A stretch of 64,000 bases of DNA from Candidatus Bathyarchaeota archaeon (GTDB taxonomy: Archaea; Thermoproteota; Bathyarchaeia; Bathyarchaeales; Bathycorpusculaceae), in assembly GCA_963833575.1 (NCBI GenBank), contig CAWHXY010000008.1, positions 96,001-160,000 of the forward strand, read 5' to 3'. Positions 43,847-49,158 of this stretch are shown here, piece after piece. The notes below the pieces were generated by a model, which was not told the origin of the DNA, did not search any database, and worked only from the letters and a program-made list of their open reading frames with translations. The first letter of the stretch is position 1, and the number at the start of each line of letters is the position of its first letter. The translations under genes and the position numbers were made by a program.

Positions 43847-44251
43847 CCAAAATAGTATACTTTTTTGGATAATGATTGTTCAGCGTTAAAATAACTGGAG
43901 TTCGCGAACTCCGTAAGTCAAGAAATCCACTGATTCTACTTTGTTTTGTTAAGGATGATTACTTTTCTGTAATCCTTTAGATTGATAGCTGAAACTTGAT
44001 TTTTCGTTATCTGTTGGATTTGCAAATTTGTATGCAAAGTCCCCAAGACTCATATCTTGGTTTGAACAGACGGTGCAAATTAGTTTTTCGCGGTCTTCTT
44101 GTCTGAAACTTAACTGGTTGTTTGAGTTTATCTGATATCCTGTTTCTTTGGCTGTTTTCATTTATTATCCAGACTGACATTTCTTCAATGTCAAGTACAT
44201 CGAATATCCAGCTTCTGATCTTAAGTGGTTAGACCAAAATTTTGCGAATAG

Positions 44252-44644
44252 TCAAATCTTTTTTCTCTCAATTAATTCAATAAGTGTTCCATCTGGGTCT
44301 TCAATAAAAGCAATTATTGTATTTGGATTGAACTTAAATGGTTCATCGGTAACCGTTATTTTTTCTTTTCGCATTCCAGCAATAGTTTTGTTGATGTCTG
44401 CAACTTCAAAGCCTAAATGGTCAAACAAGCGTTCTTCATATTCTGGCTGACTGAACTTCAGTTGATTACGGTACAGGGTTAATTCTAATTTGCAGCCTTC
44501 GCCTCTTGGATCTTGAAGGAAAGCTATTTCCGCGTTGGTCTGTTTGATCTCACGTCTGCTCAGGAGTTTTAAACCTAAAAACCGGGAGTAAAAATCGATG
44601 GATCGATCCATATTACTTGTGCGAATGCTTGCATGAACAAACAT
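44252..44644 (-). CDS. VOC family / lactoylglutathione lyase (glyoxalase I-like)
   Basis: HASIRTSNMDRSIDFY, LELT, DHLGFEV, FIEDPDGTLIELIE. Confidence 0.92.
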   Translation of the reverse strand: MFVHASIRTSNMDRSIDFYSRFLGLKLLSRREIKQTNAEIAFLQDPRGEGCKLELTLYRNQLKFSQPEYEERLFDHLGFEVADINKTIAGMRKEKITVTDEPFKFNPNTIIAFIEDPDGTLIELIERKKI

Positions 44645-44702
44645 TTCTTTTCACCTAATATTAAAGTTAAGAAATGAATGGGGGTTTTTTATAATCTTTT
44701 AC

Positions 44703-45122
44703 TTATTGACACCTTTTTGATTGTTTATCTAAGGTTTTGTTTACAAGTGCATCTGCCTTTTGAATTTGTGAATTGCTTCTTGGAACATTGACAAAACTTG
44801 TTTTTTTGAAGCTGCGTTTCAATTCTTGTACTCTGCGCCACAACTTTTGTAATTCGAGATTTTTCACGGTGTATTCGCCCCTGAGCTGTTTGGCAACCAA
44901 TTCGCTGTCAAGATGACAAATCACTTCTTCAACTTTGATGGTAATAGCGAATTCTAAGGCAACAATCAACGCGTTGTACTCCGCTTGGTTGTTGGTGTGG
45001 TTTCCTATGAAAAGGGAATCCTCGTGAATAACCGCGCCTGTATCCGTAACTGCAAGGTATGCTATTGCGGATGGCCCCGGATTTCCTCTTGCGCCGCCGT
45101 CACTATATAGCAGTAAACGCAT
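44703..45122 (-). CDS. rnhA: Ribonuclease HI family protein
   Basis: YSDGGARGNPGP, TNNQAEYNAL, DSELVAKQ, VPR..ADAL. Confidence 0.93.
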   Translation of the reverse strand: MRLLLYSDGGARGNPGPSAIAYLAVTDTGAVIHEDSLFIGNHTNNQAEYNALIVALEFAITIKVEEVICHLDSELVAKQLRGEYTVKNLELQKLWRRVQELKRSFKKTSFVNVPRSNSQIQKADALVNKTLDKQSKRCQ

Positions 45123-45363
45123 AATTATTTGTCCTCGCTTTCACCTTGACGTTAAAGAAACTAAATTACATGAAACATTGATAAAGAAATCGATGTAAGT
45201 ACAGATCCTTTTCGGCTTTCCCTTTTTGCACTTGCCGATTTTCAGCTTTCTTAAAATTTTTTAGACCCTTTGTTAGATTCAATCTTCGAGCGATTTGAAC
45301 ACAGAAGTAAGAAAAGCAATATAAAGCAAGCTTTTTCAGAATTCTACAACTTTCAATAGTAGT

Positions 45364-45513
45364 AGAAGAAGAAGTGTGCACCCACACGTTTTCTTCTTCT
45401 TTCTAACGCTTAGAAGAAGTAGGACAATCGCAGGGAGCACCGTGTCCTTCTTCTTCTATCAAGAGAAGAACAACACCCCGGTGCTACCACAAACTGTCGT
45501 TGTTCTTCCTTGA
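45364..45513. repeat. Three tandem imperfect inverted repeats with AGAAGAA/TTCTTCT-type stems (candidate structured RNA or operator array)
   Basis: Stems 45364-78/45383-400, 45411-26/45443-58 and 45459-74/45499-513, each ~15 bp. Confidence 0.85.
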
Positions 45514-45745
45514 ATAATTTAAGTTTCATAAGTCTGCCAAACAGCCCGTCGGGCAGATTGACTATTCATTTTGATTTGAACTAATTTGTCATTACCTCTC
45601 ATTTTATAAAAATGTCTAATACTTTCTATTTTTGACTAAAATTGTCGAATAACGAACCTAGTTACAGATAAATTAATCCTTGATTAAGAAAACAAGCAAA
45701 AGAGTAAAGAAAAGAATCGGGCCAGAAAAAAATCAATTTCTTCTC

Positions 45746-46126
45746 TTATTTGAGCGACTCTTTCAAAGCAGAAAAGTAAGCTAACACCTGGCCAATTTGC
45801 TCTTCAGACATCGATAGAATAGTTTTAACGGCTGTTTTCTGCTTTGCTGATGAAGAAACCGCTATAGTGGCTAAAGCATAATCAAGGCTTGTAAAAAGGG
45901 GGTCCCAAGGAATGTTAACTCGTTTACCTTTCAAGTTGTATAACGCAAGGACAAAGGCGCTAGCCCTGCTTAAGCTATCTTTAAAGGACTGTACAGATTG
46001 ACCAATAGTTATGCTATCGTAATCTTTCCCAGATAGAAAACTCTTAATTACTGAGTAATTTTTTTCTAAATTCTGAATTTCCTCAATAAGATCTTGCTTA
46101 ATTTTAGCTTCGGTATTGTCTTGCAT
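45746..46126 (-). CDS. Hypothetical helical protein
   Basis: 126-aa ORF with normal composition, divergent from leuS. Confidence 0.7.
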   Translation of the reverse strand: MQDNTEAKIKQDLIEEIQNLEKNYSVIKSFLSGKDYDSITIGQSVQSFKDSLSRASAFVLALYNLKGKRVNIPWDPLFTSLDYALATIAVSSSAKQKTAVKTILSMSEEQIGQVLAYFSALKESLK

Positions 46127-46275
46127 GCTTCATCGCTTTGTTGTATGTGAAAATCAAGTAGATAAGACTTTTTTTCGTTTCACGAATTTTTTTGAGTCAT
46201 GATACAGAAATGTTAAGATCCAGTTAAAATCGAAAGCAAAACTCTTAATAGCCAATGACTTAATCAACAAGTTTC

Positions 46276-49158
46276 ATGAGCCAAACCAAGCAAATCGAGC
46301 AGAAATGGCACACCAAATGGGAAAACGCACATGTTTTTGAGGCTGATCCTGATCCAGAAAGAAAGAAAATAATGGTAACTTTTCCATTCCCATACATGAA
46401 CGGTCCATTGCATGTTGGGCATACCTTCACGGCTTCAAGGGTTGATGCTTACGCGCGGTTTAAGCGTATGCAAGGTTACAATGTGCTCTGGCCTTGGGCT
46501 TGGCATTGGACAGGTCAACCGCTTTTAGGAGCCAGCCAACGAGTAGCCAGGGGCGACGAAGCCTATGTTAAAGTGCTCCGTGAAGTTGACGGCGTACCAG
46601 AATCAGAACTAAAAAAATTCGTTGACCCCTTGTACATGGCTCAATATTACACTAATGAAGGACGATTAGCCGCCAAAGGCATTGGGTTCTCGATTGATTG
46701 GCGACGAGAATTCACAACTGTAATGCCTACATTCCAAAAATTTATCGAGTGGCAATACAAAAACCTTAAAGAAAAAGGCTATGTTACCCGGGGAACTCAC
46801 CCAGTAGTGTGGTGTCCCAAAGATCAAAGCCCAACAGGTGATCATGACCGCCAAATAGGCGAAGGCGTCACCCCAGAGCAATATACTTTAATAAAATATA
46901 AGCTGGGTGACAACACGTTTTTGCCAGCTGCAACTTTCCGGCCAGAAACCATCTATGGAATCACAAATATCTGGATAAATCCAGATGCCGAATATGTTGA
47001 AGCAGACGTTAATGGTGAAAACTGGATTGTTAGCCAAGAAGCCTCTGAGAAACTGAAAGAGCAACAAAAGAAAGTTCAAGTCAAACGCTCATTTAAAGGG
47101 AAAGAACTTATTGGCAAAATCTTTGAAAATCCAGTTACTAAATGTAAGTTTCCAATTTTGCCGGGGTGGTTTGTGGACCCTAAAACTGCTACAGGCATTG
47201 TTTACAGTGTGCCGGCACATGCACCATACGATTGGCTTGCGCTTAAGGATTTGCAGGATAAGGCTGAAGTGCTTGCGGAGTTTGGCATTGACCCAGAAAT
47301 GGTCATGCAGATAAAGCCTATTTCGATAATCAAAGTTGAAGGTTTGAGCGAGTACCCGGCAGTTGAAATAGTCAAGCAAATGGGCATAAAAGATCAGCAT
47401 GACCCTAAAGCTGATGAGGCAACAAAAGCAATCTACAAAAAAGAGTTTCATAGCGGAGTTTTAAAAGAGAATTGTGGACCTTACGCTGGAAAAACCGTCC
47501 GGGAAGTCAAAGACACCCTTATTGAAGACTTTCGTAAGCTCGGCGTCGCCGACTGCATGTACGACTTGCCAGAACAAGTGGTTTGCAGATGCATGACCCA
47601 ATGCATAGTAAAGATTCTCTCAGATCAATGGTTCCTAAACTACTCGGACCCCGAATGGAAATCAAAAGCAAAAGAAGCCGTAGCAAAGATGACAATTTAC
47701 CCAGACTCTGCAAAACAATCCTTCTACACTGTCATAGATTGGCTTAGAGAATGGGCATGCGCAAGAACAACAGGGTTTGGAACACCACTGCCATGGGGGA
47801 AAGGCTGGATAATCGAAACACTAAGCGATTCTACAGTTTATATGGCATTTTACACAATTAACAATCACATAAAACAAAACAACATCAAACCCGAAACTTT
47901 AACGCCTGAGGTCTTCGACTACATTTTCTATGGAAAAGGAAATCCAATCGAACTTCAAGAAGCAATTGGAATAAACACTTCTTTACTAGACGCGATGCGA
48001 AATGAATTTTTATACTGGTATCCATTCGACCTTAGAAACTCAGCTAAAGAACTAGTCCCAAACCATTTGTCCTTCTGCATCTTCCATCACGCTGCCCTGT
48101 TTCCACCTGAGCATTGGCCAAAAGCCATCGGAGTAAATGGCATGCTTATGGTCGAAGGACAAGGAATGCACAAAAGCAAAGGCAACTTCATAACAATGAA
48201 AGCTGCTGTTGAAAAGTATGGAGCCGACGCCACTCGATGTGCATTGTTATTGGGAGCGGAAGGCATGGATGACCCAGATTGGCGCACAGAAAACGTTAGC
48301 GATTTACAGGGTAAGTTTGAGGCGCTGATTACTTTTGCAAGCGGAATAATGATTTCTGCCAAAAAGGATGAGAACACGACGCTTGAACGTTGGCTTATAG
48401 GTAAACTTCAGCACCGAATAGAAGAAGTTACAGCAAGCTTGAATGAGCTCAAAACACGAACCGCATTGCAGACTGCATTGTTTGAAACTTGGAATGACCT
48501 GCGCTGGTACATCCAACGGAAAGGCAGAAGTGACGCTAAAGCGTTGCGTGAAGCTGTGATTGTTTGGCTCAAATTGCTTGCACCTTTTGCACCTTTCATT
48601 ACAGAGGAACTTTGGAGTCAAACAGGCGAAGCGGGCTTTATCAGTGTCACATCGTGGCCGGTTTGCGATGAAGCAAAAGTGGATGTGGCGGCTGAAGAAC
48701 AGGAAAACTTCGTAACTGATTTAATGTCAGACACATCAAACATACTAAAAGCGATGAAGATTACACCTAAACGTGTGTGTTACTACACCGCTGCATCATG
48801 GAAATGGCAAGTGTACCTAAAGATTTTGGAGAAGTCTTTATCTGGGGAAGCGAAAATTAACGAGTTAATGAAAGAATTTGCCACAGATAAAGATTTAAAG
48901 CCACGTATGAAGGATATTGCCGGGTTGGTTCCAAGAGCAATGAAAGCTTTAGCTAAACTTCCAAGCGAGAGAAAAACTAGCATTTTAAAAATTAAAAAGG
49001 TGAATGAGAAAGAACTCTTGGAAAACTCGGTTTGCTTTTTGAAAGAACGATTCAAAGCTGAAGTATCGGTTTACAGCGAAGATGACCAGACGCGCTATGA
49101 CCCTAAATGTCGAGCATTAATGACTATGCCTTATCAACCAGCAATATACGTTGAGTAA
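46276..49158 (+). CDS. leuS: Leucine--tRNA ligase (archaeal type)
   Basis: FPYMNGPLHVGH (HIGH), GDHDRQIGEG, ATFRPET, VPAHAPYD, ETLSDSTVYMA, GMHKSKGN (KMSKS variant). Confidence 0.97.
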   Translation: MSQTKQIEQKWHTKWENAHVFEADPDPERKKIMVTFPFPYMNGPLHVGHTFTASRVDAYARFKRMQGYNVLWPWAWHWTGQPLLGASQRVARGDEAYVKVLREVDGVPESELKKFVDPLYMAQYYTNEGRLAAKGIGFSIDWRREFTTVMPTFQKFIEWQYKNLKEKGYVTRGTHPVVWCPKDQSPTGDHDRQIGEGVTPEQYTLIKYKLGDNTFLPAATFRPETIYGITNIWINPDAEYVEADVNGENWIVSQEASEKLKEQQKKVQVKRSFKGKELIGKIFENPVTKCKFPILPGWFVDPKTATGIVYSVPAHAPYDWLALKDLQDKAEVLAEFGIDPEMVMQIKPISIIKVEGLSEYPAVEIVKQMGIKDQHDPKADEATKAIYKKEFHSGVLKENCGPYAGKTVREVKDTLIEDFRKLGVADCMYDLPEQVVCRCMTQCIVKILSDQWFLNYSDPEWKSKAKEAVAKMTIYPDSAKQSFYTVIDWLREWACARTTGFGTPLPWGKGWIIETLSDSTVYMAFYTINNHIKQNNIKPETLTPEVFDYIFYGKGNPIELQEAIGINTSLLDAMRNEFLYWYPFDLRNSAKELVPNHLSFCIFHHAALFPPEHWPKAIGVNGMLMVEGQGMHKSKGNFITMKAAVEKYGADATRCALLLGAEGMDDPDWRTENVSDLQGKFEALITFASGIMISAKKDENTTLERWLIGKLQHRIEEVTASLNELKTRTALQTALFETWNDLRWYIQRKGRSDAKALREAVIVWLKLLAPFAPFITEELWSQTGEAGFISVTSWPVCDEAKVDVAAEEQENFVTDLMSDTSNILKAMKITPKRVCYYTAASWKWQVYLKILEKSLSGEAKINELMKEFATDKDLKPRMKDIAGLVPRAMKALAKLPSERKTSILKIKKVNEKELLENSVCFLKERFKAEVSVYSEDDQTRYDPKCRALMTMPYQPAIYVE

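Follow-up and report, generated by a model that had tools for sequence, protein, structure and literature searches.

The hairpins described here lie in the gap between a gene for an RNase H-like protein (rnhA) and a hypothetical gene in a Candidatus Bathyarchaeota genome, within what we call the window, that is, the whole 64,000-nt stretch of DNA that was analysed (Table 1). Three hairpin modules, H1, H2 and H3, follow one another at a spacing of 52–54 nt and are paralogous. The outer arms of H1 occupy 45364-45373 and 45391-45400, those of H2, which are 94% complementary, 45411-45426 and 45443-45458, and those of H3 45465-45474 and 45499-45508, with an extra TCAAG/CTTGA at 45460-45464 and 45510-45514. 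A sequence-only reading of this stretch had reported these three stems and a fourth hairpin beyond them, all of which are present, and it had also noted that the H2 and H3 loops are complementary. The complementarity is exact, with AGCACCG in the H2 loop (45437-45443) matching CGGTGCT in the H3 loop (45480-45486), although the positions given for both motifs and for the fourth stem were off by one base.

The stretch folds beyond what chance would provide. Against dinucleotide-preserving shuffles (n=200 per fold), the plus-strand RNA reaches -76.3 kcal/mol relative to a shuffle mean of -45.1 (z -7.9), the minus-strand RNA has a z of -5.1 and the DNA a z of -8.2, and in each of the three cases none of the 200 shuffles was equally stable. 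An Rfam search of the hairpin stretch gave best E values of 3.2-9.7, with 14-25 bits relative to gathering scores of 60-117, and ARAGORN found no tRNA in it. Homology to the repeat family described below stops at ~45515, and the fourth hairpin falls outside it: BLAST of 45510-45670 gives no other genomic copy of this hairpin, the single 80% match elsewhere spanning 45597-45669 only and missing it, and the hairpin sits within a segment of ~140 nt that is missing from the orthologous locus of the closest relative, L102.

Table 1. Genes, hairpin modules and repeat core at the rnhA locus, in window positions
Feature	Position	Strand	Remarks
RNase H-like protein (rnhA), 139 aa	44703-45122	-	Pfam RVT_3 8e-18, RNase_H 4e-8
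Core of one three-hairpin repeat copy (H1-H2-H3)	45361-45509	+	Orientation as family model
H1 module	45364-45400		Outer arms AGAAGAAGAA/TTCTTCTTCT, inner stem GTGTG/CACAC; canonical orientation
H2 module	45411-45458		Arms 16 nt; loop inverted relative to most copies and to ortholog L102
H3 module	45460-45514		Canonical orientation; most conserved module of the repeat family
Fourth hairpin, TCTGCC...GGCAGA	~45534-45558		Outside the repeat family; unique in host genome
Hypothetical protein, 126 aa	45746-46126	-	No Pfam family; 9-160 nt upstream of rnhA in relatives

The repeat family in the host genome and its relatives

The three hairpins recur elsewhere in the host genome (G000; 2.75 Mb, 8 contigs, 94% completeness), where BLAST finds copies 70-91% identical to the window element on five other contigs, and where other copies match the H2 part on both strands. 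An nhmmer profile gives 31 matches, which collapse to 19 loci spread over six of the eight contigs (C2, C4, C5, C6, C7 and C8). The window copy corresponds to the nhmmer match at C8:141346-141543 and scores 116.2 bits with the covariance model of the family, R1 (E 7e-28, model positions 1-151). All-against-all BLAST of the 3-kb flanks confines homology between copies to ~150-220 nt. The unit that recurs across the family, a core of ~140-155 nt, consists of three modules with (GAA)n/(TTC)n arms and loops carrying a GGTGC-type motif; many host-genome copies also have in common a leader of ~45 nt upstream of H1, which is specific to a subfamily and lacks conservation across other species. As a (GAA)n microsatellite, the 5' arm of H1 ranges from ~3 to 9 units among copies (loci L154-L168; genomes G098, G105 and G039).

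None of the 19 host-genome loci falls within an ORF of 100 aa or more, and copies are often within 20-150 nt of gene ends. Orientation relative to the flanking genes is unbiased: three of the host-genome copies are sense, eight antisense, two convergent and six divergent, and the count in relatives, which covers 28 of 30 model loci with two partial matches left out, is eight sense, eight antisense, six convergent, five divergent and one at a contig edge. The genes adjoining the host-genome copies have no common theme. B12-binding radical-SAM paralogues (C4:598801-600279, 1064507-1065883 and 1067216-1070028) do flank the copies at C4:600303, C4:1066034 and C4:1070202, although this may reflect just the abundance of that gene family in the genome.

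Within contigs, full or near-full copies tend to lie on the same strand (6/7 on C4, 5/5 on C7 and 2/2 on C5), and on large contigs of G098 and G105 there seemed, by eye, to be domains of orientation; neither GC skew nor gene-strand bias gave a replichore signal that would explain this uniformity. A role at an origin or terminus of replication, which the sequence-only reading had raised, does not fit an element present at 19 loci in a genome whose five largest contigs show no GC-skew signal, and the same two features set the repeat apart from an archaeal replication origin with its ORB array, which would be expected at one or a few loci per genome, beside orc1/cdc6 and with a switch in skew.

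How widely is the family distributed? By BLAST, the element occurs in 3 of 18 genomes of the same genus and in none of 12 genomes from other genera of the order, and a search with a canonical copy recovered it from 9 of 119 other genomes of the genus. In five of these nine, model R1 gives 26-37 matches per genome, both strands counted. Across species, only the three-hairpin core is conserved, and several orthologous copies are kept in three species. All relatives recovered through LeuS are MAGs of Bathyarchaeia/Bathyarchaeota whose sources were peat, soil and sediment. A collection of viral contigs contained no exact match to a conserved 19-mer of the repeat.

Genome comparisons show that copies are gained and lost in intergenic DNA, beside unrelated genes and in no fixed orientation. 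For instance, G013 has ~35 nt at the site where host copy C7:206993 occupies a 330-nt gap, and overlapping stop and start codons at the site where host copy C4:150185 occupies a gap of ~490 nt. The reverse case is found at C4:283912-283968, where the host genome has 56 nt and G009 has 345 nt with a copy. Similarly, G112 has 27 nt where G098, G105 and G109 have ~195 nt, the extra DNA there being essentially the core alone, whereas in three of the filled/empty comparisons the extra DNA (~290-490 nt) exceeds the conserved core. Because the flanks of filled and empty sites are just 74-90% identical, neither the insertion junctions nor a target-site duplication can be defined to the base, and no clear repeat at the termini stands out.

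The window locus itself is another such site. Of the 80 leuS loci that we inspected, 15 in relatives keep the hypothetical gene as well as rnhA upstream of leuS, and the element lies between these two genes in one of them, the closest (L102); one further locus, L081, has a partial match. The gap between the two genes is 623 nt in the window as against 9 nt at L101 and 62 nt at L075, and the short spacing of 9-160 nt in relatives suggests that the hypothetical gene and rnhA form an operon. L102 retains the window arrangement of rnhA, repeat and hypothetical gene; besides the repeat, the window gap holds two segments, ~45195-45290 and ~45520-45665 (the latter with the fourth hairpin), that are missing from L102. 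DNA contigs of two sequencing runs matched the stretch in short pieces of low depth, none of which joined across the element. At two loci of G009, L015 and L019, the rnhA side (window 44227-45194) and the hypothetical-gene side (45647-46295) are joined elsewhere, each meeting, across a repeat copy, sequence that in G000 lies at C6:73070-83283. These junctions reflect either a rearrangement whose breakpoints fall at the repeat or the mis-joining there of a fragmented MAG.

A different kind of variation is seen at C5:97180-103024 (L068), where two direct repeat copies 4.8 kb apart bracket three co-oriented genes for an Mrr-type restriction nuclease, a 487-aa protein without a Pfam family and an SNF2/helicase protein. 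At this site G009 carries just one copy, and ~5.6 kb including the restriction cassette are missing from it. The cassette looks like a defence-type island gained or lost beside the repeat.

What might mobilise the copies? In the host genome (94% complete), the genes beside and between copies include no transposase or integrase and are ordinary or defence genes (between the other pair of close copies, a diphthamide-synthase-like protein and two B12 radical-SAM proteins). Nor did we find in this genome a convincing TnpB or a longer element with the same ends that could be an autonomous parent. The assembly has a single Y1 (IS200-type) transposase gene (C7:653945-654303; L032). A frameshift or stop breaks this gene into two pieces, of 64 and 94 aa, and the hairpins of the repeat do not flank it. 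Y1 genes are found in 5 of 10 element-bearing genomes and in 34 of 110 others of the genus, and they are missing from two element-rich genomes, G098 and G039, that are 97% complete. Model R1 has no match at three Y1-transposase loci (L185 and L186 in relatives and the host's own L032), the sole nearby match being a degenerate copy ~700 nt from one IS. We rejected Y1/IS200 and TnpB as mobilising partners, given a Y1 gene that is broken and unflanked, its patchy co-occurrence with the element across the genus, the lack of a convincing TnpB and the lack of a model match at the Y1 loci searched.

Loop inversion, module order and tests of an RNA function

Alignment of the copies shows that single loops are inverted between copies and between orthologs, and that module order differs between copies. 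In the host genome, six hairpins in 3 of the 17 aligned loci are inverted with the order of modules kept, namely H2 in the window copy, H1 and H2 at C7:272353, and all three at C4:600303. Two orthologous pairs differ by one flip each, of H1 between C6:224641 and L018 of G009 and of H2 between the window and L102, and inversion therefore happens in place. Other species have mosaic orders such as H3-H2'-H2'-H1, H1'-H3'-H2' and H3-H1-H2-H3. The (GAA)n/(TTC)n arms accompany both the loop inversions and the module shuffling, which is in line with the suggestion made from the sequence alone that the stems are interchangeable.

These flips also account for the complementary loops. In most copies the H2 and H3 loops both carry the GGTGC-type motif in the same sense, and the 7-mer complementarity between H2 and H3 exists in one of the 48 family loci, the window copy, because H2 is inverted there. 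Two further copies have the self-complementary GGTGCACC in the H2 and H3 loops, and one copy has a match between H1 and H2.

Are the hairpins maintained as RNA? RNAalifold recovers all three from 12 canonical copies, with an unfavourable covariation term (+1.06) and compensated change in 4 of 39 pairs. In a larger alignment of 49 rows from six genomes, 91.4% of cells pair and double-sided changes occur in just 24 of 1851 cells. These changes fall in 13 of the 39 pairs relative to 4.2 expected from shuffles (0/500 shuffles as high), although the alignment had been fitted to the covariance model. There is thus some pressure to keep the hairpins, for which a function as RNA would be one explanation. 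At the level of sequence the arms are conserved, and with the partners slid by three columns 74-82% still pair because of the GAA period. Orthologous copies show uncompensated decay of H2 and internal deletions (C6:224641 versus L018, and the window versus L102). Judged by covariation and by the conservation of the element at syntenic loci (1/15), the lack of which the sequence-only reading had named as grounds for refutation, the outcome in relatives is largely against an RNA reading.

Similar tests were made for transcription signals and for strand. The 37 tRNA genes of the host genome share a promoter motif of about G-W-A-A-G/C followed by a T/A-rich TATA box, which usually starts 45-56 nt before the mature 5' end and can be used to model promoters in this lineage. 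When a BRE/TATA matrix is trained on these genes, 4 of 17 copies reach 6 bits or more upstream of H1, relative to 12.6% of random windows. Many host-genome copies have an A/T-rich box ~55-60 nt upstream of H1, and by eye such boxes to the left of H1 had looked like promoters, but no consistent promoter emerges when they are scored with the tRNA-derived matrix. We also set aside a box in the right flank, as it is present in just four copies. In span-limited folds of 17 copies, the reverse strand did at least as well as the element strand in 13; the consensus structure, for its part, includes conserved G-U pairs on the element strand, and wobble pairs in these folds and in the consensus favour neither strand. 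An intrastrand triplex was likewise dropped, since the arms alternate between purine and pyrimidine, whereas neighbouring pyrimidine arms would be needed (our reasoning; compare PMC4666352).

Interpretation and alternative explanations

We consider it likely that the three hairpins make up a single copy of a non-coding mosaic repeat, dispersed in the genome and restricted to one lineage, which by its behaviour is of the MITE, REP/BIME or BOX kind. Such a repeat would be a non-autonomous mobile, or at least a selfishly spreading, element, and its hairpins would matter as DNA or single-stranded DNA, that is, as a cruciform-capable substrate for recombination or transposition, rather than as a sequence-specific RNA. 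Every purine arm is an inverted repeat of every pyrimidine arm, which would open the way to recombination between arms or to template switching. Exchanges of this sort could invert single loops, could shuffle, duplicate and delete modules and could occasionally produce a larger rearrangement, and one such inversion would have created the complementarity between the H2 and H3 loops in the window copy. At the window locus, the sole effect of the element would be to widen, and probably to split, a gene pair, the hypothetical gene and rnhA, that had once been tight. Among the options offered by the sequence-only reading, that of a DNA element or cruciform-type array pointed in the right direction; the form it takes is that of a dispersed repeat, with loop inversion and module shuffling at the DNA level.

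Several other explanations have to be weighed against a mosaic DNA repeat. The very stable fold, stems that are kept more often than in shuffled controls, the ~45 nt and A/T-rich box that many host copies share upstream of H1 and the retention of some orthologous copies in three species are all features one might expect of a multi-copy family of small-RNA genes, each with its own promoter and encoding a three-hairpin RNA of ~150-190 nt with a role in trans or in sequestering a protein. We nonetheless regard such a family as rather unlikely, because the promoter matrix is matched in so few copies, the upstream leader is unconserved in other species, no strand is favoured by folding, orthologs decay without compensation and there is no Rfam family, and because loop flips and a varying order and number of modules are hard to square with a sequence-specific RNA. 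Alternatively, has the host adopted the copies as REP/BIME-like cis elements that tune neighbouring genes, as 3'-end stabilisers, terminators or arrays for a nucleoid protein? That the copies are strictly intergenic, often close to gene ends, stable as hairpins on both strands and mosaic in the manner of BIMEs would be readily accommodated; yet they obey no rule of orientation or position relative to genes, most species of the genus lack them, as do syntenic sites, and no RAYT-type partner was found, so that we think this unlikely.

The proposal that the window hairpins form a locus-specific kissing-loop or switchable RNA, or a leader controlling rnhA, drew on the exact 7-nt complementarity of the H2 and H3 loops. 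As this complementarity arose from a flip of H2 that L102 does not share and is peculiar to one locus of the family, as the 18 other copies in the host genome adjoin unrelated genes, and as 14 of 15 syntenic relatives are without the element, we can give the proposal hardly any credence, and the idea of a riboswitch-like leader or kissing-loop RNA at this locus is best regarded as a false lead now removed. A bolder and, in our estimation, improbable extension is that in Bathyarchaeia an unrecognised system of structure-specific recombination or single-strand transposition acts on the hairpin modules as its substrate. If this were true, that system would both spread the element and actively flip and shuffle individual hairpins, and the family, rather than being passive junk, would generate local inversions and the gain and loss of islands in a programmed way. 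In a variant of this idea, the elements might be expressed as hairpin RNAs whose loop sense is switched by inversion of the DNA.

The mosaic repeat that we favour has consequences beyond the window. Repeats of this type can cause breaks or false joins in metagenome assemblies and can flag regions that vary, and their copies could act as markers of strain history. Also, the independent loop inversions at orthologous sites provide a natural example, in an archaeal chromosome, of instability driven by inverted repeats.

Comparison with known repeat systems

REPs are mobilised by a single-copy RAYT (Y1) transposase that is itself flanked by REPs, and their palindromes are G+C-rich. The REP/BIME systems of Enterobacteria and Pseudomonas, including REPINs (PMC3116915), resemble the Bathyarchaeia repeat in being built of short palindromic modules that form intergenic mosaics of variable number and orientation. 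Both are multi-copy, lineage-specific and non-coding, with hairpins on either strand. The Bathyarchaeia repeat differs in that no cognate Y1 of the RAYT type was found for it, the sole host Y1 being broken and unflanked and two element-rich genomes having none, in that its arms are (GAA)n/(TTC)n tracts and in that its host is an archaeon.

MITEs, including archaeal ones, are alike in being small (~150-300 bp), non-coding, multi-copy, intergenic and present or absent at orthologous sites. The ends of the repeat are also MITE-like in that, by reading, the 5' arm of H1 and the 3' arm of H3 make an imperfect terminal inverted repeat (~9/11), although this is due solely to the outer arms being arms of hairpins. 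In contrast to MITEs, no autonomous, transposase-encoding IS that shares these terminal inverted repeats was found in the host genome (94% complete), and the internal structure of the repeat is one of three tandem paralogous hairpins rather than a single long inverted repeat.

The BOX elements of Streptococcus pneumoniae and the Correia/ERIC-type repeats are similarly modular and intergenic, with a variable number of sub-units and stable predicted folds, but they have no sequence relationship with the Bathyarchaeia repeat. Independent inversion of loops and a permuted order of modules are, to our knowledge, not defining features of BOX. A loop between inverted arms that is found in both orientations is known from the small inversions associated with hairpins in non-coding chloroplast DNA and from the flip/flop termini of parvoviruses; those are single hairpins or replication termini, whereas here we have a dispersed family in an archaeal chromosome. 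Keyword searches of open-access text found no description of MITE-like or REP-like repeats in Bathyarchaeia. Classed by its behaviour, the repeat is a new MITE/BIME-like family of mosaic palindromes.
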